NCBI GenBank assembly: GCA_043815505.1
Contig: JBDRIV010000002.1
Span: 182,943 to 246,942, forward strand
Direction of reading: 5' to 3'
Source: a bacterium
GTDB lineage: Bacteria > Patescibacteriota > JABMPQ01 > JBDRIV01
DNA length: 64,000 bases
The position numbers were made by a program, and so were the translations under genes. This document shows positions 16,868 to 60,460 of this stretch, piece by piece (the first letter of the stretch is position 1; each line of letters opens with the position of its first letter). The notes below the pieces were generated by a model. The model was not told where the DNA came from. It was given only the letters and a program-made list of their open reading frames with translations, and made no database searches.

Positions 16868-16944
16868 AATAAACAAGTGTACAAAACATTAAATATTTGC
16901 TATAATATAATAAAATCTACTCATCGAAAGGAGGTGAGAAAAAA

Positions 16945-17382: not shown

Positions 17383-17401
17383 ATTTGATTGAAATAATTA
17401 A

Positions 17402-17435
17402 AGAAAGTCCTTAAAAAGGGCTTTCTTTTTTTTGC
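17402..17435 (+). terminator. Rho-independent terminator after the first pilin
   Basis: Stem gaaagtcc...gggctttc followed by tttttttt. Confidence 0.65.
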
Positions 17436-17473
17436 AATTATTGTATAATTAATATATAATTAACTTTCTAATT

Positions 17474-18064: not shown

Positions 18065-18378
18065 AAATGAACATATTTGTTAATAATAAGCGTTTACCAG
18101 CCTTAGTAATAATCTCCTCAATTCTCATACTAATACTTGGTGGATTGATTGCTTATCAATACTGGTATTTGCCAAAACAAACAACTCTTTTCTTTCAAAC
18201 TGAACCATCAGAAGCAACGGTTTATATAGACGGCAAACAAGTTGGTAAAACACCATATGAACAAGATATATGGAAAGGTGAACATACTATAAAATTGGAA
18301 AAAGACGACTTAGTTTATGAAGAAACAGAAAATTATGATCAGTTAATGTATAGTATAAATCGGGTTCTGACAGAATAA
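18055..18378 (+). CDS. Small membrane-anchored PEGA-like domain protein
   Basis: TM helix ([21 protein letters not shown]), then [38 protein letters not shown], which is PEGA-like. Confidence 0.45.
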
Positions 18379-18387
18379 AAAAATCTT

Positions 18388-19218: not shown

Positions 19219-19270
19219 CCTAGGCAAAAGAACGATTTTATTGTAAAATAAAAGTACTTAGTTCCTCATT

Positions 19271-19921: not shown

Positions 19922-20495
19922 AAATAATATGATAACTTTTAAAAATAAAAAAGGATTTACATTAATTGAGGTTATGGTAGTAACCGTTGTTTTAGTTGTG
20001 GGGTTGCTCGGGATTTTAGGAATGTTGGTTTATTCTATTCGCGCCGGGGCGACCAGTCAGAATCGGGCGGTAGCAACCTATTTAGCCCAAGAAGGTTTAG
20101 AAGCTGTTAGAAATATTCGCGATACTAATGTTTTTATTGATGGACCTGAGGCTTGGGATGATAGTTTTAGTGAATCAGATGATGAAAGGTATTACAGAGT
20201 AGAATTTGATTTTAGTTCAAATCGTAAATGGTCATTAGTTGGTGGCGTAGGACCTACACAAAGGTTGAATGAAGCTGCTCCTCAAGCTGGATACAGACTA
20301 TATATAGATCCAGATTTGAATGGATATTGGAACCAAGGAAATACAACTGATGAACCAACAAATTTTTACCGTGAAATAGCTGTTGACAGAGATTCGGCTC
20401 AAGACTTACTTGAAGTAGTTTCTAAGGTTCTCTGGATTGATCAATACGGAACTCACACTATCAAAATGCAAGAAGATTTATATAATTGGTTTTAA
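19908..20495 (+). CDS. Minor pilin (PilV-like)
   Basis: KKGFTLIEVMVVTVVLVVGLLGILGML prepilin motif. Confidence 0.7.
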   Translation: MEKNKNNMITFKNKKGFTLIEVMVVTVVLVVGLLGILGMLVYSIRAGATSQNRAVATYLAQEGLEAVRNIRDTNVFIDGPEAWDDSFSESDDERYYRVEFDFSSNRKWSLVGGVGPTQRLNEAAPQAGYRLYIDPDLNGYWNQGNTTDEPTNFYREIAVDRDSAQDLLEVVSKVLWIDQYGTHTIKMQEDLYNWF

Positions 20496-21101
20496 ATGAA
20501 AAGTTTTAAGAAACAATTTGGTTTTTCAACTATGGAAATGCTCGTGGCAGTAACAATTTTTGCTATTGTTGTAACAGTTGTTACCTCAACTTTTATATGG
20601 ATAATTAGATCCAAAGAAAAAACTGAAACTTTAACTAAAGTTGAACAAGATGCCAGATTCACTCTAGACACTATTGCCAGAACTGTTAGAGAAAGATTTA
20701 TTGATTATAATGCTTATGCGGGCGGAGAAACTTCAGACACAATATGTAGTACAATAAATCTAGAGGATCCATCACAAAACCCGGTACAAATAATTTGTTT
20801 GCTAGGAGAAGAAAATAATTCCGATCCGTTTGTTATTCAATACAAACCGGAGGATAACGAAATAACTTATGGTTATGATCCAATTTTTGATATTATAACA
20901 CCAGAAGATATTGATATTACCAGTTTTTATGCTTACATATCTCCAACAAGTTCACCTTATTTTTTGGCCAATAATCCTCAAGGATCAATTACTATTGTAA
21001 TTGAAGCCACTGCTCCGAACTATCCTGACATGTCTAGTGAATCAGTTCACTTGCAAACTACCGTTTCCGCGCGCGATTATACACGAGCACCAAAAGAATG
21101 A
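20496..21101 (+). CDS. Minor pilin / pseudopilin with an atypical processing motif
   Basis: FGFSTMEMLVAVTIFAIVVTVV is a prepilin-like N-terminus, but it reads G-F-S-T-M-E where GFTLIE is canonical. Confidence 0.6.
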   Translation: MKSFKKQFGFSTMEMLVAVTIFAIVVTVVTSTFIWIIRSKEKTETLTKVEQDARFTLDTIARTVRERFIDYNAYAGGETSDTICSTINLEDPSQNPVQIICLLGEENNSDPFVIQYKPEDNEITYGYDPIFDIITPEDIDITSFYAYISPTSSPYFLANNPQGSITIVIEATAPNYPDMSSESVHLQTTVSARDYTRAPKE

Positions 21102-21898
21102 ACGAAAAAGGTTCTATCATTTTTGGTATAATTATTCTCACAGCTGTTCTGGTTACAGGTATAGCAGCTGGCATTTTAGTTGTGCAAGAGGTTCAACTCA
21201 CAGCCAATTTTGAAAATTCCGTTACTGCTTACTATACAGCCGAATCGGGAATCGAAGACACTTTATATCAAATTAAAGTTGATCCAGAAAGTATTCCCGA
21301 AACGGTTCCAGGAACTGTTTTAGGTGGGGATGGATCATATTTAGTCACAATCACCAATCCACAAACAGATTGTTTGATAAAAGACAAAACTCAACAAATA
21401 TATATAGATAGAACTTTAGACCCAGAGATTAGTTGTGTAAAAATTACTTGGGTTCCTCCACCTGCTCCATATTTAACTTGCGGTTATACTAGCGATACAC
21501 CAAATCCTTGGATAGAATATAAAACTTACAGTGTAAATAATTCTCTTTCAACAAGCGGAGTATTGGTAGAAAAAGACAGCGGTACGGGGTTAACAGATTT
21601 TGGTACTGTTGAAATAAAAAACTTAGAGGCTAATAAAAACTATTATATTCGTTTCAAACCTTTATACAACGATGCGCAAGATGTCGTAGTTGAAGGCTTT
21701 GCTGCCACAGATTGTTCTGGCACAAGTCAATTAATCCATACCGAAATTCAGCTCAATGCCGAGGGAATTTACAATTTCAATATAGACAATAACAGACAAG
21801 CTATCAGAAATATTCAAGTAAACAAAGGTTCCAGCTCACTACATGGTGTTTTCGATTATGCTATCTTTTCTGACTTAGACTTAGAAAAAGCGCCATAA
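21098..21898 (+). CDS. PilX-N-domain minor pilin-like protein
   Basis: TM helix followed by QLTANFENSVTAYYTAESGIEDTLYQIKV, which resembles the PilX N-terminal domain. Confidence 0.55.
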   Translation: MNEKGSIIFGIIILTAVLVTGIAAGILVVQEVQLTANFENSVTAYYTAESGIEDTLYQIKVDPESIPETVPGTVLGGDGSYLVTITNPQTDCLIKDKTQQIYIDRTLDPEISCVKITWVPPPAPYLTCGYTSDTPNPWIEYKTYSVNNSLSTSGVLVEKDSGTGLTDFGTVEIKNLEANKNYYIRFKPLYNDAQDVVVEGFAATDCSGTSQLIHTEIQLNAEGIYNFNIDNNRQAIRNIQVNKGSSSLHGVFDYAIFSDLDLEKAP

Positions 21899-21914
21899 AG
21901 AGCTTCAATAAGCT

Positions 21915-30413: not shown

Positions 30414-31445
30414 TTAGGTGGTGGTAATTTCACCAGCCAAATTTGTTTGCAAAAATTCACTGAAGCGCGATGGTGTTTTTGTTTGCGCCAGTGCCAACAT
30501 CGATTTAATAAGCGTACTTTCCAAAGTCATATTATTTACAACTGTTGCTTCAATTCCCATTTCATCCAATTGTTTCACCAGATGTTGTTTGTTATTTTCA
30601 TCCAACATAATGTCGCGATAAATCAAACGTTTTCCTTGCTTGGTAATTTCAAGCATGGCTTTTTGGTGCTCTGGAGAAATGTTAGTTTGAATTGTGGACT
30701 GAATTAGAATTGCCCGAGCATCAGTTTCAGCTAAATTTTCCAAAAGTTTAGCCGGCAGAGAAGGATACAAATAAATTACCTGAATATTATTATCCATTTC
30801 TGTTGCGATATTAGTATTTGTTTGTTCAGTTTTCAAAATGTTATTTGCTAACTTTACTCCAAAATCAATTTGTCCAATTGGATCCATGCGAAAGCTGGAA
30901 AAGATATTTATAGGATTGTTGGGTGAGCGAAAAGCCCGGTTGGCACGCACCAACTGATTGCCAAACATTAAAGAAACATCGCGGTGCGGAAGAGTAGCCA
31001 CTTGAACGGCGTTGATTAAATTTGCCTTAGTTCCTAAAAATTCAAATTTTTGCAGAGAAGTTTCATCGTACTTATTATGAATCGCAAAATTGTAATTTCC
31101 TGTGCAGACAAGTGGTTTGTTAAAATCTGCCAAAAGAAAAGACAACGCCGTTGCGGTGTAGGTGATATTTTCAATATTATGTACCAGCACAAAGCCATCA
31201 AAATCATTTTCGTGTTTTTTTATAGTTCTCGCAAAATCAATCCAGTCGGTTTGGCTAACTTGTTCAGGTTCCTTTGGTAAAAGCAAAATTGGTTGAACAT
31301 CACAAATAAGCTCAAGTTCAGGAATGAATTTAAGCCACTTTTTTATATCTTTCTCGTTTTTAATGGAAGTAGACTCTGGGTCGTTGTAAGAAAGCGTTGT
31401 TCCAGAAGAAAGAAATAATCCAATTTTAGTATTCTTTTTAGGCAA
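30414..31445 (-). CDS. L-asparaginase family protein (type I-like)
   Basis: IGLFLSSGTTLS corresponds to TGGTI. VLVHNIENITYTATALSFLLADFNKPLVCTGN corresponds to HGTDTMAYTASALSFML..KPVV.TGSQ. Confidence 0.6.
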   Translation of the reverse strand: MPKKNTKIGLFLSSGTTLSYNDPESTSIKNEKDIKKWLKFIPELELICDVQPILLLPKEPEQVSQTDWIDFARTIKKHENDFDGFVLVHNIENITYTATALSFLLADFNKPLVCTGNYNFAIHNKYDETSLQKFEFLGTKANLINAVQVATLPHRDVSLMFGNQLVRANRAFRSPNNPINIFSSFRMDPIGQIDFGVKLANNILKTEQTNTNIATEMDNNIQVIYLYPSLPAKLLENLAETDARAILIQSTIQTNISPEHQKAMLEITKQGKRLIYRDIMLDENNKQHLVKQLDEMGIEATVVNNMTLESTLIKSMLALAQTKTPSRFSEFLQTNLAGEITTT

Positions 31446-31489: not shown

Positions 31490-31679
31490 AAAACAGTATA
31501 TAGGGCCGTCGCAGATAAAGAGCCGTCTATATTATATCAAAAAGATAAATCTTTGTAAAATATTCAGCACATTTCAAAATATTATTGGAAAAATAGAGCC
31601 GTCGCAAATTTCTATAAAATTGTTAAAAAGAGTTGTGGATAAGTTTAGATTATTAGCAATCTGTGAGGTTTTTAAATTC

Positions 31680-31731
31680 TGCTCATAGTTCTCCCGTCTT
31701 CCCCCAGTTCAGGACGGGAGAACTATGAGCA
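31680..31731. promoter_or_regulatory. 18-bp perfect inverted-repeat hairpin with a 14-nt loop inside the long leader
   Basis: gctcatagttctcccgtc-ttcccccagttcag-gacgggagaactatgagc. It is unusually GC-rich for this genome. Confidence 0.6.
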
Positions 31732-31868
31732 GAAAAGATGGCCATATCGGCCAGCGCTCTTTTGAAAATAGGAGACTATATGGAGAAAGTATTTTTCGAA
31801 CTTGTCTTAGTATGAAGTATGCGCCTAGGACGTAACCAACAACAGACCAAATTATAGGAGCAAGAAAA

Positions 31869-36299: not shown

Positions 36300-39014
36300 T
36301 TATTTCTGATCACTAGCTAATAAGTGAGGGGAATCACTTTTTGGTGCTTTAATAGGCACCAATAATGTGAAGGTGGTTCCGTGTCCTTTCCCTTTACTAT
36401 TAACAACAACCTTGCCACCATGAGTCTCAATAATTTTCTTGATAATATATAATCCCAAACCAGAACCGTCAGCATTAACTTTAGCAATTCCACGGGCGCG
36501 CACAAATTTTTCAAACAGTTTATCAACTTCATTCGGATCAATTCCCACACCAGTGTCTCTCACATTTATATGAACATATTTTTCGTCAATATCACAAGTC
36601 ACATCCACACTTCCTTTTAGTGTATATTTAATAGCGTTATCTAAAAGGTTGGTAACAGCAATGCGCATTTTGTCTGGATCAACAAATAGAACTGGATATT
36701 TTTTGTGAGGTTTTTTCCAATTTAGTTTAAGACCTTTGTTTTTAGCGCGAATTTGAAACTCGCTTACCACACTGGTTACTAAATCTGTTATTTGAATTTC
36801 GGTTCTATCCAAACGGAAACGACTGGATTCTATGCGGGAAACATTTAAGAATATATCAATAAGTCGGACCAAGCGTTCAATATTTTCCAAGTTAGTATTA
36901 ACAATTCTTTTTTGTTCTTTGGTCATTTTACCGAAGTCGCCTTCAGAAAGCATAGAAAGATAGCCTTTAATTCCTGATACCGGTGTGCGCAATTGGTGAG
37001 CAGCCACCGATAAAAATTCTGACTTGGCTTCATCAAGCTCTTTCAAGTGAGCATTAGCTTCAGCTAATTTAGCGGTAGCTTTCTTAACTTCAATTTTTAG
37101 TTTATCAGCAAATTGTTGAGTTTCACTATAAAGACGGGCGTTTTCAATAGCAATAGCTGCTTGGTTAGCTAAAGCTTTTAAGATGCTTAAATTAATCTCT
37201 GAAAGCGGACGGTTTGTTTTGGCATTATCAACTCCAATTACACCCAAAACCTTATCTTTGGTCATCAGAGGAAGGGCGATAAAAGCCTTGGTGCCCAGTT
37301 TCTGAATATGTTCTTTATTAACAAATTTATTTGCTTCAGCATTTTCGACTACTACAGTTTTACGGCGATCAATTACTTGGCCTAAGATACTAGTTTTTGG
37401 ATCAATGCAAATATTTTTGTAGAGATTTTCATCATCACCTCGTCCCATGGTGGCATACAGGCAATTATCTTCTTCTTTAAGTAAATAAAGCAAAGCGCGG
37501 TCGGAATTGGAAGAATCAATTACAGCATCCATAACATAATTTAAGGTTTTTTCTTCTTCCAAAGTAGCGTTAATAGCCTTACCTAAATCATACAATGTAG
37601 AAAGTTCCTTAACGCGTTGTTTTGTTTCTTCGTAAAGATTAGCGTTGTCTATGGAGGTAGCAATTTGTGGTGACAAAGTATCAAGTAACTCCAAATCTTC
37701 TGGCGAAAACATGTCTCCGGAAAGTTTGGCACCAATTACCAATGTTCCAATTAAGCGACCTTTCAAAATTATGGGTGTTACTAAATCTGAATCTAAATCT
37801 CGTAAATAGTCTGTAACTTCCTCAACTGTTTTTTTGTAAGTTTCATCTGGAGAACTTTCCATTTTGTGTTCCAGCTCATTAAAAACCACTGTACTTTTTT
37901 CTTTATTTAAAAATTTGTACAGTGGGGAATTGAATTCAAGTTTTTCTAATTTTTCATGCTTAAAACCATCGTTAGCTATAGCTTCGTTACCAGCCTGATG
38001 ATTCCAAAGTACCAGTGCAATGCTGTCTATTTTTAATATGTGTTTTAAATCTTTGATTATGCTTTTTGAAAGTTGTTTTAATTCAATGGTTTGGCTTACT
38101 TTGCGGCTTAAATCTTTCAAAGTTTCGTTGTAATCGTATTTGTCTTTGAAAAAGATTTTATCAGTTGCCTTACGCAACCAATCACGTAGGGGATTATACC
38201 CAATAGCAACTAGTACAGCGCTTATAATGGCACCAGTCATAGTTCCGCCAAACAACTGACCGAAAAATATAATAGACACAGCAAAAACGGAAGTAATAAT
38301 TAGAACCAGAACCGAATATGTTATAGACCGTACGATAAAGATTCGAATGTCCATTAAACGGTGTTTTACAATTGCGTATGTTGCAAAGGAAACAAAAAAT
38401 ACTAAAGCATAAGGTCCAAATTTACTATATATAAAATTTCCTGTAATACTTGGCAATATAAGATTTGTAAGTAAACCAATGGTTAAGCTAATAAATAATC
38501 CTAATGCAAAATACTTAAATTGAATTCTAACGTTACCTTTTGTTTTTATATAGCTGCGAATTAAAGCATATATTGATCCTATGAAGAAAATTAAAGCATA
38601 TATCAAGAAAAGGAAATATAGTTTTCCAGTTATAACTGTTACCCCAGATTCATATCTTTCAACATTTTCAATAATCAAATCGGTTAGAAGTAAAATAGAA
38701 ATTAATAAAGGTAATATATTTGTAAAATAGAAGAAGTACTTATTAAGATTAAATATTCTTTTTGGAAAGATAATAGAAAATCTTAATAGTGACCATGCAA
38801 TGAAAATTGCAGCCATGAATGTAATCCTTGTCCAAACTAAGCCATTATTAAGTGAATTATCAGACATGTAATTAGATACTGACCAAAAAATAATAAAAAG
38901 AATTAACAGGGCAAAGTAAATATTAATTTTATTTTTCCTGTTTTTATACAAGACAATAGCTCCAAGGGAAGCATTGATTATTTGTAGTATTATTAAATAG
39001 AATATTTCACTCAT
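36300..39014 (-). CDS. Sensor histidine kinase: N-terminal multi-TM sensor, two GAF domains, HisKA and HATPase_c
   Basis: About seven N-terminal TM helices. H-box LSVAAHQLRTPVSGIKGYLSML. G-boxes DTGVGIDP...GSGLGLYIIKKI. No adjacent response regulator. Confidence 0.85.
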   Translation of the reverse strand: MSEIFYLIILQIINASLGAIVLYKNRKNKINIYFALLILFIIFWSVSNYMSDNSLNNGLVWTRITFMAAIFIAWSLLRFSIIFPKRIFNLNKYFFYFTNILPLLISILLLTDLIIENVERYESGVTVITGKLYFLFLIYALIFFIGSIYALIRSYIKTKGNVRIQFKYFALGLFISLTIGLLTNLILPSITGNFIYSKFGPYALVFFVSFATYAIVKHRLMDIRIFIVRSITYSVLVLIITSVFAVSIIFFGQLFGGTMTGAIISAVLVAIGYNPLRDWLRKATDKIFFKDKYDYNETLKDLSRKVSQTIELKQLSKSIIKDLKHILKIDSIALVLWNHQAGNEAIANDGFKHEKLEKLEFNSPLYKFLNKEKSTVVFNELEHKMESSPDETYKKTVEEVTDYLRDLDSDLVTPIILKGRLIGTLVIGAKLSGDMFSPEDLELLDTLSPQIATSIDNANLYEETKQRVKELSTLYDLGKAINATLEEEKTLNYVMDAVIDSSNSDRALLYLLKEEDNCLYATMGRGDDENLYKNICIDPKTSILGQVIDRRKTVVVENAEANKFVNKEHIQKLGTKAFIALPLMTKDKVLGVIGVDNAKTNRPLSEINLSILKALANQAAIAIENARLYSETQQFADKLKIEVKKATAKLAEANAHLKELDEAKSEFLSVAAHQLRTPVSGIKGYLSMLSEGDFGKMTKEQKRIVNTNLENIERLVRLIDIFLNVSRIESSRFRLDRTEIQITDLVTSVVSEFQIRAKNKGLKLNWKKPHKKYPVLFVDPDKMRIAVTNLLDNAIKYTLKGSVDVTCDIDEKYVHINVRDTGVGIDPNEVDKLFEKFVRARGIAKVNADGSGLGLYIIKKIIETHGGKVVVNSKGKGHGTTFTLLVPIKAPKSDSPHLLASDQK

Positions 39015-39108: not shown

Positions 39109-39684
39109 TTATATAGCAATCTTCTGGAGGACGATTCTTTCTGGATATCTTCTTGAATAATGTTCCACCGCTTCATATATATTTATATATATAGAAACAC
39201 TTTTAGATCCCATATACTCTTTTTTCCCTCCTAAGCGATGAAAAACAATATTAAGACTTCGAAGTAATCTGATCAAACGTACATCGGCAGCAGCATACCA
39301 ATGAACAAGACCATGATTGAAACCAACCTCACAAGCTTTTATGAGTAATCCAATCATTACATCGTGATTCTCATTGCTGCCCTTTTTGACTACTAGGCGC
39401 GAAACTTCCACACTGGGTACTTTCTTGTCATCAATTGGAAAATGGGATTCCATTGGGAACGTATCACAGACAATCAACCTAACTCCTCCAACTACTTTAT
39501 CCCTTTCATTATTCAAACGTGCAATAATGTGAAGTGACTTTTTATCGAACTCGTCGGTTTCAAGAGGTTCTGGATATATCGACGGATCGATATAATTCTG
39601 TTCCTTATATACTTCGTATCTCAGTTTGTAGAAAAGTTTAAGATCCTCTGGCGTTGCAAGCCTGAACATTATTTCTTTAGACAC
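39109..39684 (-). CDS. GNAT-fold acyltransferase-like protein (N-acyl amino acid / autoinducer-synthase-like)
   Basis: FRLATPEDLKLFYKLRYEVYKEQ...VVGGVRLI resembles the LuxI / N-acyl-amino-acid-synthase N-terminal signature. Confidence 0.4.
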   Translation of the reverse strand: MSKEIMFRLATPEDLKLFYKLRYEVYKEQNYIDPSIYPEPLETDEFDKKSLHIIARLNNERDKVVGGVRLIVCDTFPMESHFPIDDKKVPSVEVSRLVVKKGSNENHDVMIGLLIKACEVGFNHGLVHWYAAADVRLIRLLRSLNIVFHRLGGKKEYMGSKSVSIYINIYEAVEHYSRRYPERIVLQKIAI

Positions 39685-39701: not shown

Positions 39702-40376
39702 TCAGTACTTTGCAATCACTAAGTAGTCAGAATCACCGTATGTTTTGGTGATTTTTACATGGTTAAAGTTAGAGAACAACCTTTTTATGTCATTCTCACT
39801 CATAAAATCATACGGACCTCTTTTGCAAAGAAAGGTTAGTATTGAATCAAAAAACCATACAAGAATAAGCGAAGGTATCGCTTTCAGGCTTGTGATTTGA
39901 TTCAAGGGATTTTTTGAGATTAGTTTTTTAATGTTCCAATCCTTGCTTGGAAATGTTGCTATGACCACCCCGTTTTTATTGAGAATGGTATGTAATCTGT
40001 TAACAACTTGAAGTCTATTAGGTTCTGTATAAAGAGAATCAATGATGATAATTCTATCAAAACTGATATTCTGATCATGAAAATGGCTTATCCCTTCAAA
40101 AAAATTACCTCTAACAAAGATCCCATTAGGGCAATTTTTCCTAGCAAACTTAATCATAATTTCCGAGATATCCACACCAAACCATTTGGTTTTTATATAA
40201 TCAGGCCATCTTTTTGTAATCGTGCTTGTGCCACAACCAAGGTCTAAAATATAGCTATTATTTAGCAGGTTATGCTGGAGATGTAAAATTACATCATCAA
40301 GTTTCTGGATATAGGGCCTAAAGTAATATAGACCCCCATATACAATTGCATACAGGTTCCAAAAAAGCTTTAACAT
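39702..40376 (-). CDS. Class I SAM-dependent methyltransferase
   Basis: Motif I ILDLGCGTSTIT and a Rossmann-type layout. Confidence 0.7.
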   Translation of the reverse strand: MLKLFWNLYAIVYGGLYYFRPYIQKLDDVILHLQHNLLNNSYILDLGCGTSTITKRWPDYIKTKWFGVDISEIMIKFARKNCPNGIFVRGNFFEGISHFHDQNISFDRIIIIDSLYTEPNRLQVVNRLHTILNKNGVVIATFPSKDWNIKKLISKNPLNQITSLKAIPSLILVWFFDSILTFLCKRGPYDFMSENDIKRLFSNFNHVKITKTYGDSDYLVIAKY

Positions 40377-40581: not shown

Positions 40582-41952
40582 ATGAAGATAGATTTTATAT
40601 ATATTTTACAAATTATCGTAGCTGTTTTTGATTTACTTTTAGCTTTATATGTTTTTGCCAAAGGAAATAAGAATAATAAAAATATATTTTATGCTTTAAA
40701 TATTTTGGCGATTATTTTTTGGACGATTGGATTAATTTTGTTCCAATCGTTTTCTTTTGTTGGAGATAAACTTTGGATTACTATTTTGTATATAGCACCA
40801 ACCTTTACAGCTAGTACATTTTTAGCATTTTCATATTTTTTCCCCACTAAAGATAAGAGATATTCTAAAACAAAGATTATTTCAATATTTATTATAAATT
40901 TATCACTAATTATATTAATTCTAATACCCGATTTAATTGTAATTGAAGGAAGTGTTTTTGATGGAATTAAGGGAATAACACTTGGTCCTGCTTATTTTTT
41001 ATATGTTTTATATATTTTTGGATTTTATACAATCGCATTTACAAGAATATTTTTAAAACATTTTCAAGTTAATCGAATAGAGAAAAAACAGATAAAAATT
41101 CTATTAATTGGTTATATGATTGCAGCCAATGCAGCATTTATTACAAATCTATTTTTACCATGGATAGGCAATTTCTATTTTAATAGATTCGGACCAATGT
41201 TTTCATCAATTATGGTAGCAGTTGTTGCAATAGCCATCATCCGTTATCGCTTCATGGATATTCGAGTGGTAATTAAAAGAAGTTCAATTTACATTATAAC
41301 GGTTGTAATTGCCTTAGTTATTTATGCGGCGTTAATATTTTTATTTCAAACAGAAATATTTTCCAATTTAAATTTAAATAGCACAACCGCCACTCTAATT
41401 TTAACTGCTCTCATTATTGCCGGTGTGCCACTAATTCAAAAAGGAATTAAAACATTAACAGAAAAGGTTTTTACTAAGGAAGAATATGATCCGCAAAAAG
41501 CATTAGACAAGTTAGAAAAAATTACAATAGATAATCAATCACAAAATGTTATAGAAAAAGCAGAAGAAATTATCAAAAAACAATTAGGCGTAGAAAGCGT
41601 TAAAACAGAGACCAAGGATTTTAACAATGATCTTCTGACTAAATATTTAAATAAGAGAGGGGAGTCTGTGATTGTGAAAGAGGAGTTGGAATTTATTCAG
41701 CAGAGAAATTCTGATTTGAAAGAAGTTTTGGAAAGACTAAAATTATGGTTTAAATATAATCAATCTGATGTTGGAGTGATTCTTCAGAATCAGCAAAAAA
41801 TTATTGGAGTGGTGTTGCTTGGACCCAAAGAAAACAAAAAACCATATTCCGTGCAAGACATAGAATTTTTAAATCAATTCCAAGTACGAATTTCTATCGT
41901 GCTGGCCAATACACTTTTATATGAAAGTACAATTAATCAATTAAAGAAATAG
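40582..41952 (+). CDS. Truncated sensor paralog A: histidine-kinase-like multi-TM sensor domain plus a GAF-like C-terminal domain, with no transmitter
   Basis: It is homologous to the N-terminal region of the kinase at 36300-39014. FYALNILAIIFW matches YFALLILFIIFW. NRFGP...IRYRFMDIRVVIKRSSIY matches SKFGP...VKHRLMDIRIFIVRSITY. KVFTKEEYDPQKALDKL matches KIFFKDKYDYNETLKDL. It ends ...VRISIVLANTLLYESTI, like the end of a GAF domain. Confidence 0.75.
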   Translation: MKIDFIYILQIIVAVFDLLLALYVFAKGNKNNKNIFYALNILAIIFWTIGLILFQSFSFVGDKLWITILYIAPTFTASTFLAFSYFFPTKDKRYSKTKIISIFIINLSLIILILIPDLIVIEGSVFDGIKGITLGPAYFLYVLYIFGFYTIAFTRIFLKHFQVNRIEKKQIKILLIGYMIAANAAFITNLFLPWIGNFYFNRFGPMFSSIMVAVVAIAIIRYRFMDIRVVIKRSSIYIITVVIALVIYAALIFLFQTEIFSNLNLNSTTATLILTALIIAGVPLIQKGIKTLTEKVFTKEEYDPQKALDKLEKITIDNQSQNVIEKAEEIIKKQLGVESVKTETKDFNNDLLTKYLNKRGESVIVKEELEFIQQRNSDLKEVLERLKLWFKYNQSDVGVILQNQQKIIGVVLLGPKENKKPYSVQDIEFLNQFQVRISIVLANTLLYESTINQLKK

Positions 41953-41953
41953 C

Positions 41954-43315
41954 ATGGAGTATGTTGAACATATTTTGTTTAGTTTAATGTTAATTGCAAA
42001 TTTTGTAATTGCTTTTTACGTTATTTTAAAATCAAAAAACAGAATTATTGGAGGTTTGTATTTTATAATGTCATCCAGTTTGTCAATTTGGGGTATTAGT
42101 TCATATATTTTAGACCTTTTTCAATCTATACAAACAAGATTATTTTTAGCTAGACTAGATTATGTTTTGGGTGTTATACCAACATTATTCTTTGTAATAT
42201 TTTCAATATATTTCCCAAATAAGTTGAAAAACCTGAAAAGCAAAATATTAGAGATAATTTTATTCTTAATATCTTTTTTTGTATTAATACTATCAATCAC
42301 AGATTTAATTATAAAAAATATTAGTATTGAGAATAATTTCACAATTATTGAAAGAGGGTCGTTTCATATTGTATATACTTTATTTTTATCTTTGTTTATA
42401 TTATTTGGTAGTTTTTTGATGCTATACAAATATAGAAAAAGTGAAAGTATAGAAAAATCACAAATATTTTATTATTCCTTAGGAGGTATTTCAACTGCTA
42501 TATATATTGTAATTTTGGATCAAATTCTCCCTTATTTTTATAAATATCCAACAAAGTGGGGATTGTTAGCAATACCAATATACATTGCAACAGCTGCCTA
42601 TGCCATAATTCGCTATCGTTTCATGGACATTCGAATAATTATCAAGCGTAGTTCTATTTATATAGCTACCGTGGCCTTGGCAATTTTGATTTATATTTTG
42701 ATAGTTTATTTATTGCAAACATATTTTGTGACTAATAGTTTAAATAATAATGCCACAGTTATTTCTGCATTAATTGTAATTATTGGTATTCCCTTCATTC
42801 AAAAAGGCTCAAAGAATTTGGTAGAAAAGGTTTTTACCAAAGAAGAATACGATCCACAAAAGGCCTTAACCGAACTTGAAAGCAAATCAACAGATCGGCA
42901 TTCGGCAGAAGTTATAAAAGAAATAGAAAACATTTTAAAGAAACAATTTAGTCTGGAATTTGTAAAAACAGAATTGGCTGATGTAAATAAAAACTTATTA
43001 CTGGATTATTTAAAACAACAAGGAGAATCTATCATTATAAAAGATGAAATCAAGTTCTTGCATCAAAAAGATCCTCACAGCAAAGATTTATATGAAAAAT
43101 TGGCCATGTGGTTTAAATACAATAAAGCTAAGGTTGGTGTGATTCTAACAAATCAAGAAAATATTATTGGTGTAGTTTTATTAGGTGCAAAAAAACAAAA
43201 TGAAACCTACTCAGTCCAAGACATAGAATTACTAAATCAATTCCAAGTACGAATTTCTATCGTGCTGGCAAATACGCTTCTTTACGAAAGCACAATAGCT
43301 CAACTGAAAAAATAG
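41954..43315 (+). CDS. Truncated sensor paralog B: same architecture as paralog A, in tandem
   Basis: About 50% identical to paralog A at protein level. The last ~60 nt are ~93% identical to paralog A at DNA level. Confidence 0.75.
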   Translation: MEYVEHILFSLMLIANFVIAFYVILKSKNRIIGGLYFIMSSSLSIWGISSYILDLFQSIQTRLFLARLDYVLGVIPTLFFVIFSIYFPNKLKNLKSKILEIILFLISFFVLILSITDLIIKNISIENNFTIIERGSFHIVYTLFLSLFILFGSFLMLYKYRKSESIEKSQIFYYSLGGISTAIYIVILDQILPYFYKYPTKWGLLAIPIYIATAAYAIIRYRFMDIRIIIKRSSIYIATVALAILIYILIVYLLQTYFVTNSLNNNATVISALIVIIGIPFIQKGSKNLVEKVFTKEEYDPQKALTELESKSTDRHSAEVIKEIENILKKQFSLEFVKTELADVNKNLLLDYLKQQGESIIIKDEIKFLHQKDPHSKDLYEKLAMWFKYNKAKVGVILTNQENIIGVVLLGAKKQNETYSVQDIELLNQFQVRISIVLANTLLYESTIAQLKK

Positions 43316-43322: not shown

Positions 43323-43362
43323 GTGTTATAATAAAACAAAACATTAACATCAAAACTATGAG
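43323..43362 (+). repeat. Copy 1 of a 40-bp direct repeat that includes an extended -10 element (TGnTATAAT) and an ATG
   Basis: gtgttataataaaacaaaacattaacatcaaaactatgag. Copy 2 is at 45627-45666 with one mismatch. Confidence 0.8.
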
Positions 43363-43407
43363 TATGGTTTTGACTATAGAATGTTATTTTGATAAACTAC
43401 AAATTAC

Positions 43408-43437
43408 TGGGGTATTTTGCCCCATTTTTGTTTTTTG
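43408..43437 (+). terminator. Rho-independent terminator
   Basis: tgggg-tattttg-cccca followed by tttttgttttttg. Confidence 0.6.
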
Positions 43438-43553
43438 AAAATGCTCTCTTGATAACTCAATCCTCAGTACACAATGTTAATTTAGATGCTCATTATGAGT
43501 AGCTAGCTTAGGATTTGCAGTTATCAGGTTAAGCAGGAAAGGAGGATAGCGAG

Positions 43554-43694
43554 ATGGAAGAGTTAAAAATGATCCAGGAACAAGAAACGGAGTATCAGGG
43601 AAGTCGGTTTGCCAGCATGGAAGTATTCGACACCGATACATCCTGTTGCGATTGTGACTGCGATTGTGATTGCGGTGACACCGACAACTACTGA
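43554..43694 (+). CDS. Candidate RiPP precursor peptide: 46 aa, six Cys, an acidic leader and a CCDCDCDCDC core
   Basis: A strong Shine-Dalgarno sequence (aaaggagga) lies 7 nt upstream of the ATG. Translation: MEELKMIQEQETEYQGSRFASMEVFDTDTSCCDCDCDCDCGDTDNY. It sits immediately upstream of a radical-SAM/SPASM gene. The opposite-strand 100-aa ORF (43477..43779) is its mirror image and has no ribosome-binding site. Confidence 0.6.
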   Translation: MEELKMIQEQETEYQGSRFASMEVFDTDTSCCDCDCDCDCGDTDNY

Positions 43695-43708
43695 TCCGAT
43701 TGTCCGGC

Positions 43709-43740
43709 GTGGGAGGGGTCAATAAAATGACCCCTCCCAC
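43709..43740 (+). promoter_or_regulatory. 13-bp perfect GC-rich stem-loop between the precursor and the radical-SAM gene, with no U-tract
   Basis: gtgggaggggtca-ataaaa-tgacccctcccac. This is the placement typical of the precursor/enzyme decoupling hairpins seen in RiPP operons. Confidence 0.55.
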
Positions 43741-43766
43741 AATCATCTTATGAAAGGAGGTGTGAA

Positions 43767-45050
43767 ATGATACCAGCATTAGCCCAATGGGAAATATCAG
43801 ATAAGTGTCAGTATCGATGTCAACATTGTTACTACACTAGTCCGGAAGAGGTTTCATTATCACCAGGCATTTTGAATGACGAGCAAATGTGGCAAATTGC
43901 CAATATAATCGTATATCACCAACTCTTCTTCGTAACTTTTACAGGAGGAGAACCGCTAGTTATAAGTGCATTACTTGTACAGTTGGCCAAGTATTTGCAT
44001 GAGCACAATGTCTCGTTGTCTTTAAATACCAACTTGGCATTAATGAATGAAAGTCTTTTTGCAGATTTGCATGTTGATCGAATGTTAATTTCCTGTCCAG
44101 CAACAGATCCTTCGGTGTATCGAGAAGTAACTGGAAACGGTAATTATCACCTCTTCGAACAAAAGCTCAAGCTTCTGATTGAAGCTGATGCAAATTTCAC
44201 TGTAAACATGGTTGTTAGCAAATTAAATCACTTACTAATCAGAGAAACAGCTTCTCATTTAGCAAACCTGGGAGTGAAAAGATTTGCTGCAACACCGACA
44301 AGTATCAATCCCACAAATCCAAATTTTTCGTTGTTGCTTGATTTAAATGAGGTCCAACAAGTTATTTTTGATCTCATTTGGGCTTACGAAGAATTGGGAT
44401 TAGAAGTTGATATTATGGAGTCAATTCCGAAATGCGTGATGCCGCTTAGAGCATTCGAGCTCGAGTTGCCGTTTGTATATAGGTCTTGTCATGCCGGTAA
44501 AAGAAACGGCACAATATCTGCCAATGGTGACGTTCGTCCTTGCGGACATAATCCTCGTGTTTTCGGTAATATACTTACAGATAAAGTTGAAACTATTTGG
44601 AATCGAATGCACGATTGGAGAGAAGCCAGTGGTAATTTTCACACAGACTGTCTTGGTTGCGATATTTTCAGCAATTGCGGTGGCGGATGCCGAGTTGATG
44701 CCGCTACGCGGGAAGGAGAAACAGCAGCTAAACACCCTTATATGACTCATAAGCTGACAGCTCCACCTGTAAAGCCGAAAGAGATAACTCTTTTACCAGA
44801 CACGGTAATTCGGCCGTCTAGATCTTTCCACTTTAGATCTGAAGATGGTGGGTGGCTCGTTGCTCCTGGATCGCCGAGAAACATAATTCATGTCAACCAA
44901 GTATTGTATGAATTCTTGGTTTCCAGCAGAGATTTGAATCCGATGCCAGTTGCAGAATTGGCAACTAAGTATAATACCACAGCAAACGATTATAATTTTC
45001 AGCGAGTTTTAAATGAAGTGATCAAGAAAAAGTTCTTTGTTATAATGTAG
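43767..45050 (+). CDS. Radical SAM enzyme with a C-terminal SPASM/twitch domain (peptide-modifying maturase candidate)
   Basis: Shine-Dalgarno sequence aaaggagg. The CxxxCxxC motif is at the very N-terminus (CQYRCQHCYY). GGEPL motif present. SPASM cysteines: CHAGKRNGTISANGDVRPCGH...CLGCDIFSNCGGGCRVDA. A ~110-aa C-terminal extension of unknown function follows. Confidence 0.8.
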   Translation: MIPALAQWEISDKCQYRCQHCYYTSPEEVSLSPGILNDEQMWQIANIIVYHQLFFVTFTGGEPLVISALLVQLAKYLHEHNVSLSLNTNLALMNESLFADLHVDRMLISCPATDPSVYREVTGNGNYHLFEQKLKLLIEADANFTVNMVVSKLNHLLIRETASHLANLGVKRFAATPTSINPTNPNFSLLLDLNEVQQVIFDLIWAYEELGLEVDIMESIPKCVMPLRAFELELPFVYRSCHAGKRNGTISANGDVRPCGHNPRVFGNILTDKVETIWNRMHDWREASGNFHTDCLGCDIFSNCGGGCRVDAATREGETAAKHPYMTHKLTAPPVKPKEITLLPDTVIRPSRSFHFRSEDGGWLVAPGSPRNIIHVNQVLYEFLVSSRDLNPMPVAELATKYNTTANDYNFQRVLNEVIKKKFFVIM

Positions 45051-45130
45051 TCTTATGGGGAAGTATGTATAATAGCATCTTCCCTGTTTCTTTATGGAGC
45101 TGTATAATAAATATGGAGTAACTTAAAAAC

Positions 45131-45613
45131 ATGAATAAATATTTACAACTTGGAAAGTATTCTAAAGATTGTCCGAAAGAACTTTTAGTTGAAGTTAAAA
45201 AAATTAAAAAAGAAAATAATCAAAAGGATTATATATTGGAGATATTTAAATTGGTTAAGGAAGAATTTAATCCTCAAAAACATGACATTACGACCACGAA
45301 TGATTTTAAAATATCGCGTTTTATATCTGCGAATGAGGTATATAAAAAAAGACAACGGTCATGTGGTTCAATCGCTACAGTTATGGCTTCGTTGTTAAGA
45401 ACTCTTGGATATCCAACAAAGCTTGTTAATGGATTTTATATTAAAAACAATCCCCAAATGCGTCATGCGTGGAATGAAGTGATGATTAATGGAAAATGGG
45501 TAGCAATTGATATAATGAGAAATGATTTTAAATTAGATAAGTATCATGTTAGAAACGATGAGTGGGTAGATTGGAACGATTTGGAAAAAGAAATGCAAAA
45601 AAGTGAGAAATAA
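45131..45613 (+). CDS. Transglutaminase-like cysteine peptidase domain protein
   Basis: Cys-His-Asp core: RSCGSIATVMASLLRTLGYPTKLVNGFY...HAWNEVMINGKWVAIDI. This matches the transglutaminase-core pattern. Confidence 0.7.
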   Translation: MNKYLQLGKYSKDCPKELLVEVKKIKKENNQKDYILEIFKLVKEEFNPQKHDITTTNDFKISRFISANEVYKKRQRSCGSIATVMASLLRTLGYPTKLVNGFYIKNNPQMRHAWNEVMINGKWVAIDIMRNDFKLDKYHVRNDEWVDWNDLEKEMQKSEK

Positions 45614-45626
45614 ATTTTATAAGATT

Positions 45627-45666
45627 GTGCTATAATAAAACAAAACATTAACATCAAAACTATGAG
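45627..45666 (+). repeat. Copy 2 of the 40-bp direct repeat. It overlaps the start codon of the 1075-aa surface protein gene.
   Basis: gtgctataataaaacaaaacattaacatcaaaactatgag. Confidence 0.8.
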
Positions 45667-48600
45667 GAGAATTTTAAAATCCGTAGCCATCTTCACTTTA
45701 GTAGTGGCTTTTATTTTTGGCATAATGCCTTTTAATACTAAACAAGCAAAGGCGACTTCATTTGGAGATGCTTCAACCTTTGTTGGTAGAATTTATGCTG
45801 GCGATGGCAATACTGGCAATAATGCTTATTTGGACTTTGCTCGCGGTATGGATATTGATGATGACGGCAAAATCTATTATGCCGACACCTATAACAATGT
45901 CATTCGCAAACAAAGTAAAATTTCTGGTGGCACCGTGAGTACTTTGGCTGGCACTGGTGATTATGGTGATATTACAGGAGCAACATCCAAAGCTAAATTT
46001 GCTTATCCTAAAGATGTTGATGTTGATTCAGACGGAACAGTTTATGTAGCCGACACCTACAACAATAAAATCAAAAAAATAAAAAATGGACAGGTAACAA
46101 CGCTCGTATCTTCTGGTTTGAAATATCCTCAAGGTTTACATTTGGTCGGTAGCTATCTGTACATTACCGACACCGGCAACAATCAGATTAAAAGAGTCAA
46201 TAAAAATGGCGGCTCGGTAACAACCCTAGTAACAGGATTAAATGCTCCAGAAAAATTGCGAGTTGATTCTTCCCAAAATTATGCTTACATTGCCAACACC
46301 GGCGCTGGTTCAGTTGTAAAAGCCAGATTATCAAATGGCAGTAAATCTACATTGGCTTCAGGATATCAGACAGTGACTGGTGTTGAACTTTACAACAACA
46401 AGGTTTATTTTTCTGACGAAAAAAACGAAGCAGTGAGAAAAGTGAGCATTAACGGCGGTAGCGTATCTTTATTTGCCAACGATCCCGGTCAAGTTCAGGT
46501 TCACAAACCAACCGATCTAAAAAGACGAGGCAACTACATGTATGTTTTAAACACCGGATCCTCCGACATGCGTCGTTTTAATTTAAGCAACGGCAATTAC
46601 GATACAAAAATTACTGGCGCAAGAGTTTTTCAATATCGGAATGGTTCTAAATCATCAGCCTTACTTGGTCGTCCCACTGATATAATAATGACTTCTGATA
46701 GGAAATATTTGTATGTGGCCGAAAATAATCAAATTAGAAGAATTACCAGAAGCTCAGGATACACAACTCATATTGCTGGTAACACCTCCGATAATTTTCG
46801 TGATGACGTCGGCTTAGCCGCCCGCTTTTCAACCATCGGGAGTATTGTTATTGATTCCAACAATCATTTTATTTATGCCACTGATCGCTGGAACAACCGT
46901 ATCAGAAAAATTAATGTAAATACTGGCCGAGTAACTACTTTGGCTGGCGGCGGTTTAATTAACACTACCGGTTCCCAAAGAAATGGCTACAAAGAAGCCA
47001 CTGGAACGGCTGCTCGTTTTGATAATCCCGTTGGTCTGGCAATTTCTCCTGACGACAAATATTTATATGTGGCCGACACCAACAACAAACGCATCAGGCG
47101 CGTTATCATTGCCACCGGCAAAACCGAATTTATTGCCGGCTCCGGAACTGATGGTTTTGCCGACGGCACAGGCTCTACTGCCAAATTTAACACACCTTAT
47201 GGTTTAACCATTGATAGCAGTGGCAATAATTTATATCTGGCTGACCGCAATAATCATCGTATCAGAAAAATAAATCTAGCTACAAAAGCTGTAACCACAT
47301 TAGCTGGCACTGGAGAAATTGGTGCTCGCGACGGATTGGGTGACACCGCAGTCTTTTCTTATCCTACCTACGTTAAAATGGGCTCGGACGGAAATTTGTA
47401 CGTCAGTGAAGCTGGCTCACATAACATTCGTTTTATAAAAACTTCTACCACCAGCGTTAGATTACTGGCCGGATCTGGAACTAAAGGATTTAAGAACAGT
47501 ACTCGTTTTGCTTCCAAATTCCACAATCCTGCTGGTATGGTTTTAGATGACGCTGGTGATACGCTTTACGTTTGTGATTTTTACAACGATCAAATTCGCT
47601 CGGTAGCAGTTACGGGAGAAACTCCTTTTGCTGAAGCTGCTCCTAATATAAATTCCATTTCACCCAATAATTACGCCGCCCAATCACAATCACTTAAACT
47701 TGGATTGGCAATTACTGGTTCAGGATTTAGAATTGGTGCTAGAGTTTATATTGGTTCTCATGAAACTTCACCAACTTATGTGCAATCCGATTCCAGCATT
47801 GGTGGAGAAATTGACATTAATAACTGGTCGCCTGGTTATTACGATGTGAAAGTTACAAATCGTGATGGTCAAACAACCACCATGTCGCAAGGTTTTGTAA
47901 TTAGAAACGCCGACGGTTCTTATCCACCAAGACCTGTAGATATAATTCCACCTGCCCCCGGCGATTCTTTCATGGCCTACACCGATAATTTACGTGGTGG
48001 TTACTATTTGGGCAGTGGAAATATTTCTGGTTCTAACAAAGCAGAAATTATTACTGGCACCATGCAAGGACTTGGTCCGCAAGTTTTGGTTTACAACAAC
48101 AGCGGATCATTGATGAGCAATTTCTTTGTTTATGCTACCTACTTGCGTTCCGGTGTTCGTTTAGCAACAGGCAATGTGGATGGTAGTGGCACTGATGAAA
48201 TAGTTACTGTGGCCGGCCCAGGTGGTCGACCACACGTTAGAATTTTCAATTCTGATGGTACACCGCGCTATCCCGGTTTCTTTGCACTTGATGGAAAATT
48301 TATGGGCGGTTCTCATGTCGCAGTAGGCGATGTGTTGGGTAGAGGTTATGACCAGATTCTAATTTCGGCTGGTTCTGGTGGCGGTCCGCAAATTACAGTT
48401 CATGATAAATTGGGAAATGTCTTAGGAATCTTTTATGCTTACGAAAGTACTTTCCGCGGTGGCGTGCGTATAGCCACAGCTGATTTTGATGGTGATGGCA
48501 TTGATGAAATTATTACTGGTCCCGAAAATGGTTCTTCTCATGTGCAAATCTTTTCCATGAAGAACGGTATTAAAAGACTAACTCCCGGCTTCATGGCCTT

Positions 48601-51901: not shown

Positions 51902-51918
51902 TATGTTATAATATCAAT

Positions 51919-60204: not shown

Positions 60205-60460
60205 AAACTACTGGGTGTGGATAGTTGCCCTTGAAAAAGGTTAAAATATTTGCTATAATAAAGGTAGAAAGTGAGTAAAAAGTAACTTGCTTTCAAATGG
60301 GGTTGAAAACTGGCAAAAAAACAAAAAGACAATTGAAGAATGTACAATGCCTCTTTCTAATGAAGGAGGTATTGTACTTTTAGGGCAAAATTAAAGAGCA
60401 AAGAGTGAAATTTCGAGTTTTTATTCTTTGCTCTTTAAATTTTGAATTTTAATCTAGCTA

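Follow-up and report, generated by a model that had tools for sequence, protein, structure and literature searches.

Promoter regions that recur within one locus are described from the regulons of peptide pheromones and bacteriocins, such as nisA/nisF, the plantaricin pln operons and the ComE boxes, in which inducible promoters are repeated. Promoter capture by segmental duplication is reportedly exemplified by rnk-citT of Cit+ E. coli in the long-term evolution experiment. To our knowledge, almost no regulation has been described in Patescibacteria. Here we report a 40-bp direct repeat in 64,000 nucleotides of DNA (contig JBDRIV010000002.1; this whole stretch is called the window hereafter) from a Patescibacteria metagenome-assembled genome. 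The two copies of this 40-mer lie on either side of a cassette for a ribosomally synthesized and post-translationally modified peptide (RiPP), which consists of the genes for a peptide precursor, a radical S-adenosylmethionine (rSAM) enzyme and a transglutaminase-like protein, and copy 2 opens the gene of a large surface protein. Our results suggest, at a probability of about 45%, that the promoter head of the RiPP operon was copied onto the surface-protein gene.

The 40-bp repeat and its predicted promoter-leader elements

Copy 1 (GTGTTATAATAAAACAAAACATTAACATCAAAACTATGAG) at 43323–43362 and copy 2 (GTGCTATAAT...ATGAG) at 45627–45666 were identical at 39 of 40 positions (97.5%), with T43326 versus C45630 as the sole mismatch, and the distance between their starts was 2304 bp. 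In self-BLAST of the window the pair had an E value of 1e-12 and was the only intergenic repeat pair; the remaining pairs were the sensor paralogs, the prepilin paralogs and repeats internal to one large protein. A chance origin of the match was excluded, as 0 matches to the 40-mer were expected from 100 dinucleotide shuffles. The possibility that the 40-mer is a widespread promoter motif was not borne out either: its 28-nt core had no match in genome, metagenome or viral DNA collections, and the two copies in the window were the only ones found. Thus, the motif is not widespread, and likewise these collections offered no strain variants for comparison.

The alignment confirmed what the first-pass annotation of this DNA had observed, and its interpretation of the repeat was supported in part. 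Each copy carries an extended -10 element (TGnTATAAT) and an ATG, and copy 1 follows the second of two sensor paralogs, beginning 8 nt past its stop (43315). The claim that the repeat brackets the cassette exactly held at the right edge, where copy 2 lies 13 nt from the stop of the transglutaminase-like gene (45613), but not at the left edge, where 191 nt separate copy 1 from the precursor ATG (43554). These 191 nt comprise a predicted hairpin, a terminator-like element and the 5' untranslated region. Outside the 40-mer, a flank extension test found no similarity between the left flanks (p = 0.5) and a marginal one between the right flanks (p = 0.015, one of four tests). The latter came from 43425–43460, at the T-run of the terminator-like element after copy 1, and 45708–45742, which codes for the hydrophobic core of a signal peptide, at an offset of 21 nt. 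This similarity is probably due to chance, yet it is compatible with an older and longer duplication.

The promoter predicted at copy 1 matched the consensus at 10 of 12 positions, including the TG, and its -35 hexamer CTGAAA matched at four of six. At the corresponding position copy 2 had AAATAA, with two of six consensus matches. The leaders within both copies are short and without a Shine-Dalgarno sequence. From copy 1 onward, the RNA was predicted to fold into a nested hairpin whose 5' arms are inside the 40-mer and whose 3' arms are in the unique flank, with the repeat ending at the hairpin tip. This fold joins 16 bases of the 40-mer to partners in the unique right flank. The predicted fold of 43339–43440 had a z-score of -3.85. 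The minimum free energy of the leader hairpin was -11.7 kcal/mol, and equally stable structures were found in 22 of 2000 flank shuffles (p ~0.011) and in 57 of 4921 real segments of the window. The ATG at 43358 is partly buried in the predicted hairpin stem, and the 26-codon open reading frame (ORF) that it opens is probably a by-product and not a gene.

The order of promoter, hairpin and U-run before the first ORF (43324–43436) is that of an attenuator, and the same layout was found in four related loci (L005, L010, L014, and L017). As the hairpin and the terminator-like element both follow copy 1, transcripts bound for the precursor, rSAM and protease genes would first meet a gate of hairpin and terminator. 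No sequence complementary to the terminator arm was noticed when the copy-1 leader was inspected by eye, and Rfam contained no family for the leaders of the window or its relatives. A weak extended -10-like site downstream of the terminator-like element, which is a pattern match only, is a possible alternative promoter for the precursor.

At copy 2, the 1075-aa ORF has its first start codon, ATG 45662, which begins a typical signal peptide comparable to those of the NHL homologs. The RNA at copy 2 was predicted to be unstructured (z = -0.04), with no pairing partner and no terminator. Thus, copy 2, which has no -35 element, no hairpin partner and no terminator, looks like a truncated copy of the complete module at copy 1. 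The nearest NHL homolog (locus L001) was 50% identical and was in an unrelated gene context. A scan of the genome contig collection with the NHL protein found no relative, and the NHL, rSAM and YqeY proteins of the window had no exact match in the contig index.

The elements of the 40-mer were compared with the gene starts of the window. TGnTATAAT was found 21 times against 5.2 expected, a four-fold enrichment, and about 8 of the 21 sites were 7–40 nt upstream of ORF starts, with positions read by eye. Most genes of the window have A/C-rich leaders without Shine-Dalgarno sequences, and strong GGAGG-type sites were found in few genes, including those for the precursor and the rSAM enzyme. Given that TGnTATAAT and A/C-rich leaders without Shine-Dalgarno sequences are common in the window, the 40-mer resembles an ordinary gene start of this genome. 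At one further -10 site (51904–51912) an ATG follows after only 7 nt, which points to a leaderless mRNA.

Between the two copies of the 40-mer, the only ORFs that matched a family or resembled genes of relatives were those for the precursor, the rSAM enzyme and the transglutaminase-like protein (Table 1). The rSAM enzyme had 91 homologs, of which the nearest was 65% identical, and its scores were below every curated NCBIfam cut-off (56 bits vs. 340 for PapB, 63 vs. 625 for StsB, 48 vs. 850 for AlbA, and 80 vs. 400 for GeoRSP). The solved structures related to it were all distant. A scan of the viral collection with the rSAM alignment yielded only distant rSAM proteins with 23–36% identity and no viral relatives of the cassette. 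The precursor, with its (CD)n-GDIDNY C-terminus, matched no family in Pfam or curated NCBIfam scans. The transglutaminase-like protein is likely the leader peptidase, and its gene has -10 boxes of its own at 45038–45046 and 45106–45111. The hairpin between the precursor and rSAM genes, which has equivalents at the same place in L031, L032, and L033, probably adjusts how much precursor is made relative to enzyme, or stabilizes the transcript. The literature searched contained nothing relevant on the precursor motif, RiPPs of Patescibacteria or HisKA_7TM. The combination of a (CD)n-GDIDNY precursor, an rSAM-SPASM enzyme, a transglutaminase-like protease and 7TM sensors apparently represents an uncharacterized RiPP family of about 90 members, mostly from Patescibacteria.

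Table 1. Positions of the repeat copies, the cassette genes and elements, and the neighboring genes in the window
Feature	Position	Strand	Basis or remark
Asparaginase	30414–31445	-	Among the genes that recur near the cassette
7TM-GAF-HisKA-HATPase kinase	36300–39014	-	Pfam
FeeM/autoinducer-synthase-like GNAT protein	39109–39684	-	Pfam
S-adenosylmethionine (SAM) methyltransferase	39702–40376	-	Pfam
Two tandem HisKA_7TM sensor paralogs	40582–41952, 41954–43315	+	Pfam; GAF-like C-termini, no kinase domain
-35-like hexamer CTGAAA	43304–43309	+	17 nt upstream of the copy-1 -10 element; in the last codons of the second sensor gene, outside the repeat
Repeat copy 1	43323–43362	+	Extended -10 TGTTATAAT at 43324–43332; predicted transcription start near 43339–43340; A/C-rich leader; ATG 43358
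Nested leader hairpin (predicted)	43340–43385	+	AACAUU (43340–43345) with AAUGUU (43380–43385); UCAAAACUAU (43350–43359) with AUGGUUUUGA (43364–43373); loop GAGU
26-codon ORF MSMVLTIECYFDKLQITGVFCPIFVF	43358–43438	+	Opened by the copy-1 ATG; traverses the terminator-like element
Intrinsic-terminator-like hairpin TGGGGTA-TTT-TGCCCCA with T-run	43408–43436	+	45 nt past copy 1, 118 nt before the precursor ATG
Weak second extended -10-like site TGTTAATTT	43475–43483	+	Downstream of the terminator-like element; pattern match
RiPP precursor, 46 aa, MEELKMIQEQETEYQGSRFASMEVFDTDTSCCDCDCDCDCGDTDNY	43554–43694	+	Strong Shine-Dalgarno sequence; C-terminal part ...FASMEVFDTDTSCCDCDCDCDCGDTDNY
Hairpin TGGGAGGGGTCA / TGACCCCTCCCA without T-run	43710–43739	+	GC-rich, strong; between the precursor and rSAM genes
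rSAM/SPASM peptide maturase, 427 aa	43767–45050	+	Pfam Radical_SAM, SPASM
Transglutaminase-like protein with cysteine protease fold, 160 aa	45131–45613	+	Transglut_core; weak Transglut_core3
Repeat copy 2	45627–45666	+	Extended -10 TGCTATAAT at 45628–45636; same 22-nt leader; ATG 45662 of the 1075-aa protein
NHL/FG-GAP/IPT-TIG surface protein, 1075 aa	45662–48889	+	Pfam and homologs; signal peptide

Related cassettes and their flanking repeats

The comparison covered 12 loci with rSAM homologs that were 46–65% identical to the enzyme of the window; their window-type cassettes include those of L002, L004, L005, L010, L012–L014, L017, and L031–L033. The precursor family (..F[AS]xM.V..(CD)3-5.GDIDNY*) was present in 12 of the 12 loci, and the transglutaminase-like gene, whose product is about 155 aa long in this family, was directly downstream of the rSAM gene in 10. 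Across loci, the C-terminus of the precursor read (CD)3-5-x-GD(I/T)D(N/D)Y. The gene order of sensor, precursor, rSAM enzyme and protease was the same in independent assemblies, and the position of the cassette relative to the sensors varied among loci. In all ten relatives the precursor and rSAM genes were GC-richer and had Shine-Dalgarno sequences, and the protease gene was AT-rich with a TATAAT near its ATG. Thus, this contrast, which was considered as a signature of insertion and rejected, is a trait of the family.

In relatives the cassette behaves as a discrete unit. L012 and L013, whose rSAM enzymes are 95% identical, share a single block of 2.2 kb with 87% nucleotide identity (L012 423–2644 and L013 328–2550), which extends from a TTGACA -35 box to the last codons of the protease gene. 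Beyond this block, 4.2 and 6.5 kb of downstream sequence had nothing in common, also by tblastx. The size of this unit matches the spacing of the 40-mer in the window. The same unit, likewise beginning at CTTGACA, was shared between L031 (7646–9838) and L032 (2397–4587) at 83% identity; there the flanking kinase gene was 74% identical and a 1.3-kb indel separated the two blocks. Because the unit of L012 and L013 begins at a promoter -35 box, the promoter belongs to the cassette and not to its flank. The block shared by L012 and L013 is evidence that the operon travels as a unit, and this modularity supports the earlier idea that the bracketed segment is a moving module.

The leaders of the relatives are also conserved. 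L005, L014, and L017, whose rSAM enzymes are mutually 57–70% identical, all have TTGACA-N17-TAAAAT/TATACT, an A-rich stretch of 25–45 nt and then a ATCAACAYAGCG...CTRTGTTTTTT hairpin with a T-run; the precursor is about 200 nt past the leader hairpin, with no other evident promoter. The leader of the window matched this motif at 8 of 12 positions. In addition, the copy-1 -10 region (GTGTTATAATAAAA) and -35 region (CTGAAAAAAT) aligned with GTGTTAAAATAAAA and CTTGACAAAT of L014 and L017, with CTGAAA at 43304–43309 facing the CTTGACA of their leader promoters. In L010 the promoter directly follows the sensor stop, a long hairpin with a T-run (z = -5) comes next, and the precursor lies 120 nt later. 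The layout of the window is like that of the relatives: sensor stop, promoter (copy 1), hairpin, terminator-like element, 118 nt, precursor. The ATCAACAYAGCG-loop-CTRTGTTTTTT leader, for instance at L014 6456–6552 and L017 171–262, may represent an attenuator or a small RNA that is peculiar to this RiPP family. Upstream of the precursors, the otherwise AT-rich 5' regions of L004 (7590–7690), L031 (7660–7720), and L032 (2420–2470) contained two to three GC-rich motifs akin to GCCGTCG/CGACGGC, which may be operator sites.

Direct repeats flanked the cassette in two other lineages, L005/L007 and L010, and their sequences were unrelated to the 40-mer of the window. The spacing of the repeats was similar in the three lineages (2304, 2345, and 2446 bp). 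In L005 and L007, the second copy of a head of about 200 bp lies 13 nt past the protease stop, before an operon for a methyltransferase, a second rSAM enzyme and a 143-aa protein. This head consists in L005 of the last 91 nt of the kinase gene (96% identity), followed by a -35 box, a -10 box and the ATCAACATAGCGCGCCA leader (~70%). The 91-nt block, which codes for the C-terminal 30 aa of a 7TM-GAF histidine kinase, occurs at 7337–7427, 9682–9772, and 12426–12515 of L005 and also in L007. The two extra copies are 96 and ~88% identical, and each is 12–13 nt past the stop of the last gene of an operon. The third copy has the 91-nt block only; the shared promoter and leader follow the first two copies. 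Given that the leader motif is single-copy in L014 and L017, the upstream copy of L005 is ancestral and the downstream copy derived. Arranged in this way, the blocks look like the junctions at which cassettes of a tandem array are joined through attachment sites.

In L010, a head of about 100 bp (TTGACR-N17-TATACT, a hairpin and a T-run) was found at 6912–7010 and 9358–9460 with 80% identity. One copy stands before the precursor operon, and the other after the rSAM terminator and before the gene of a secreted 300-aa protein. The inner stem of the hairpin showed a compensatory change (CCUAG/CUAGG vs. CCGUA/UACGG), and both hairpins had z-scores of about -5. The compensatory change indicates that both copies have been maintained.

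No flanking repeat of the head type was found in L002, L004, L017, L032, and L033, and no direct repeats were found around the shared unit in L012 and L013. L012 and L014 had repeats elsewhere that did not flank the cassette, and L031 had a weak pair that is probably due to coding paralogy. No such repeats were present in the L001 control locus (23 kb) or in the remaining 60 kb of the window. The intergenic repeats of L012 and L014 reflect that some of these genomes are generally repeat-rich. A 63-nt GC-rich palindromic element of L012 (2737–2799 and 6728–6790; ...GCCTGCCTGCGCAGGCAGGG...) is 100% identical in its two copies and resembles a repetitive extragenic palindromic element. In L013, inverted copies of a terminator-like element of about 75 nt lie on either side of the cassette (240–315 and 2574–2646); their flanks are conserved and their central hairpins differ (ATCCCGCCAGTGGCGGGAT vs. 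TGTTTTGCGAAGCAAAACA). GC-rich hairpin elements were also seen by eye in L013 and after the third block of L005.

Genes for 7TM sensors or kinases accompany most of these cassettes in one position or the other: just upstream in the window, L004, L005, L010, L031, and probably L032, and downstream in L014 and L033; none was seen in L002 or in the P0140 contig. In L005, L031, and L033 the families of the kinase, the FeeM-like protein and the methyltransferase adjoin the cassette, and an asparaginase also recurs in the neighborhoods of L004, L031, and L033. This suggests a larger conserved neighborhood for signaling and biosynthesis, in which the gene order is rearranged between genomes. Thus, the sensors are not a neutral left flank, since sensors, kinase, methyltransferase and FeeM-like genes recur beside the cassette in many relatives, and an empty site in which the sensor gene is followed directly by the NHL gene is not expected as the ancestral state. 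The P0140 contig carries a variant of the cassette, with genes for a 43-aa precursor, a 215-aa protein and an rSAM enzyme, between two Glyco_hydro_57 and two GT5/GT1 genes, which could be an insertion into a duplicated or split locus of glycogen metabolism.

Proposed origin of the second copy

The 40-mer is best explained as the head of the promoter-leader module of the RiPP operon, with an extended -10 element, a putative transcription start some 7 nt further on and about 22 initial bases of the transcript, among which the AUG happens to fall. At copy 1 this head would continue into the structured leader, followed by an intrinsic terminator 45 nt later. Copy 2 would be a truncated head, without the -35 element, the hairpin partner and the terminator, that was joined to the surface-protein ORF at the downstream edge of the cassette, where it would supply the promoter, the 5' end and the start codon of that gene. 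From the anatomy of the sequence, the predicted structures and the comparison of architectures across loci, we infer that both copies may be active promoters, that the copying ran from copy 1 to copy 2 and that the two units may be co-regulated: the surface-protein gene, without a gate, and the RiPP operon, behind its gate, would have promoter and 5' RNA end in common.

The 40-mer could have reached its second place by tandem duplication of the 2.3-kb unit and subsequent deletion between ATGAG microhomologies, by a short templated copy or gene-conversion tract that halted at the hairpin tip, or by gene conversion between older paralogous heads. The position of copy 1, which corresponds to the conserved promoter and leader position of the cassette, its predicted pairing with the right flank and its better -35 element would all favor an origin of the 40-mer within the cassette. 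They also speak against the 40-mer as a target sequence of the host. Copying of the operon's own head onto the surface-protein gene, to which we assign the probability of about 45%, is further supported by the start of the L012/L013 unit at a -35 box, the head duplications of L005/L007 and L010, the usual gene-start style of this genome and the lack of a transposase, an integrase or terminal inverted repeats among the sequences scanned.

Several observations weigh against this reading. Only at copy 2 does the ATG of the 40-mer start a real gene, and genes of the host typically begin with an A/C-rich leader that runs into an ATG, so that copy 2 could be the original. The promoter, the terminator and the hairpin are predictions; the significance of the hairpin is moderate (p ~0.01), and the likeness of copy 1 to the promoters of L014 and L017 falls in AT-rich, consensus-like sequence. 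There is no shared operator upstream of the two copies, and co-regulation would thus have to act within -14 to +26. Among the relatives, 5 of the 12 loci had no flanking repeat and two more had repeats that do not flank, the three-copy block of L005, which reaches 91 nt into the kinase gene, looks more like an attachment site than like regulatory reuse, and the cassette is demonstrably an exchangeable unit.

The last two points sustain the main alternative, somewhat unlikely but possible, in which the repeat is a recombination scar of cassette mobility; it refines the insertion proposed in the first-pass annotation. The 2.3-kb unit would have entered, or re-entered, through a circular or longer-than-unit intermediate that recombined within the 40-mer, either homologously or site-specifically, with one copy left on each side; the same repeats would allow excision. 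The junctions expected from such events are ATTTTATAAGATT-[40-mer]-TATGGTTTTGAC for a circle and the stop of the second sensor gene-CCAAAAA-[one 40-mer]-GAGAATTTTAAAATCC for a deletion. The sharp edges and 97.5% identity of the repeats are consistent with this account, as are their similar spacing in three lineages, the variable position of the cassette relative to the sensors and the use of the ATG at copy 2 alone. The repeats also enclose exactly the unit that is common to L012 and L013 (87%, with unrelated downstream flanks) and to L031 and L032 (83% vs. 74% for the kinase gene), and in L005 the block that covers the kinase 3' end bounds two successive operons with its three copies like tandem attachment junctions. 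However, the unit of L012 and L013 is itself not enclosed by direct repeats, no viral relatives of the cassette were found, and copy 1 is predicted to pair with its right flank at the conserved promoter position. Moreover, homologous integration needs the 40-mer in both partners beforehand, and a prior duplication is thus still required.

The same considerations bear on the insertion scar that had been proposed from the sequence. Its sharp-edged repeat and the discrete exchangeable unit, the latter now seen in relatives, are retained, but a target-site duplication of the transposon type is not: 40 bp is too long, the segment between the repeats has no terminal inverted repeats (43363–43442 vs. 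the reverse complement of 45547–45626, p = 0.28), and Pfam scans that covered the long ORFs of the 64-kb window found no transposase, integrase or other recombinase family. These two negative results also count against mobility of the cassette in general. The two copies are, as had been suggested, a plausible substrate for deletion of the cassette by recombination; under copying of the operon head this would be a by-product. A broader hypothesis, which we consider doubtful, is that the (CD)n-RiPP operon is a mobile cassette without a recombinase of its own that uses its hairpin-forming head as a portable homology or attachment-like site. Such cassettes would shuffle within and between sensor loci of Patescibacteria, leave head duplications of 40–200 bp at the downstream junction, as in the window, in L005 with its three copies and in L010, and thereby wire the downstream gene into the same control. 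Under this hypothesis, a terminated copy-1 transcript of ~95 nt, of which the first 22 nt are also those of the surface-protein mRNA, could possibly act as a decoy for a leader-binding factor.

The older diverged heads of L005 and L010, with 70–80% identity, raise the improbable alternative that a longer promoter-leader module was duplicated long ago in the window as well and that a recent gene-conversion tract of 40 bp restored near-identity. The residual similarity of the right flanks (T-run and AATGC..., at the offset of 21 nt, p = 0.015) would fit, but the signal is marginal after four tests and falls within the coding sequence of a signal peptide that resembles those of NHL homologs, the left flanks are dissimilar (p 0.5), and a conversion tract of 40 bp that is sharp at both ends would be unusual. 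Still less probable is that the repeat has no significance, either as a neutral accident, namely a chance short duplication, or as an assembly artefact from mis-joined strain variants. The source is a metagenome-assembled genome and the length of the repeat is in the k-mer range of assemblers, but the internal mismatch speaks against an overlap artefact, the conserved gene order was seen in independent assemblies, and so were analogous duplications, with L005–L009 coming from several samples; an assembly artefact is hence unlikely. Copy 2 also speaks against such readings, as it contains the one start codon and the one promoter-like element that the conserved 1075-aa gene has.

Other features of the window and comparison with known systems

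Elsewhere in the window, a type IV pilus cluster at 9562–21900 encodes PilM, a PilO-like protein, two T2SSE ATPases, T2SSF, a prepilin peptidase, several N_methyl pilins and a receiver-domain protein that stands alone. This receiver protein (14161–14565) is the only one in the window and has no DNA-binding domain. In the same cluster, a 90-nt repeat (16948–17037 and 17492–17581) represents the common prepilin N-terminus of two adjacent pilin paralogs. Two near-perfect intergenic palindromes of 56–58 nt, at 31677–31734 and 60387–60442, are likely bidirectional terminators.

If the copying of the operon head is correct, an event of 40 bp would have brought a large NHL/FG-GAP surface protein under the start signal of a RiPP operon that resembles a peptide signal system and lies in a sensor-rich locus; this is a testable hypothesis for regulated surface remodeling in uncultured and probably episymbiotic Patescibacteria. 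An exchangeable cassette of 2.2–2.4 kb whose downstream edge bears head duplications in three divergent lineages suggests that promoter-leader modules can serve both as regulatory parts and as recombination handles for the shuffling of operons.

Similar to the target-site duplications of transposons and insertion sequences, the repeats of the window are direct and immediately outside the segment; different from them, which are 2–14 bp long, the window has neither inverted repeats nor a transposase. The attC sites of integrons were also considered and rejected: the arms TCAAAAC/GTTTTGA do not fit the RYYYAAC...GTTRRRY cores, the block has promoters of its own, and no integrase was found. Integrative elements that are flanked by attachment (att) sites and moved by tyrosine or serine recombinases, and that often reside at 3' gene ends, share with the window direct repeats of tens of bp around an exchangeable block. 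In the window, too, a gene ends next to the left repeat, and in L005 the left repeat overlaps the gene end. However, no integrase is in or near the block of the window, the block is only 2.3 kb, and the repeat consists of a promoter and a start codon.

The cassette itself is similar to those of the ranthipeptides (PapB/freyrasin, with Cys-Asp thioethers), the sactipeptides and SCIFF, in which a small Cys/Asp-rich precursor is encoded directly upstream of an rSAM-SPASM maturase. A downstream gene for a protein with a protease fold and a hairpin between precursor and enzyme are shared as well. Different from these families, the rSAM enzyme of the window is far below the curated cut-offs and its precursor has no family match.

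The regulons of peptide pheromones and bacteriocins share with the window near-identical promoter regions before several units of one peptide and sensor locus, with sensor kinase genes alongside. Their operators, however, consist of two repeats of 9–10 bp upstream of the -35 element that are bound by a response regulator, whereas the window shares the -10 element and the 5' leader, with similarity from -14 only and unrelated left flanks (p 0.5), and no DNA-binding response regulator was seen next to the locus. Similar to the rnk-citT capture, a promoter-bearing segment was apparently copied directly upstream of a neighboring gene, in direct orientation, over a few kb and with a junction near the start of the captured gene. 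Different from rnk-citT, the duplication in the window is only 40 bp (-14 to +26, including the start codon), the intervening unit is single-copy, and events of the same type recur in three lineages around the same cassette. The finding is thus a variant of phenomena already described, promoter capture or repeated regulon promoters on the one side and gene cassettes flanked by direct repeats on the other, and is set in an uncharacterized RiPP-sensor locus of the candidate phyla radiation (CPR).

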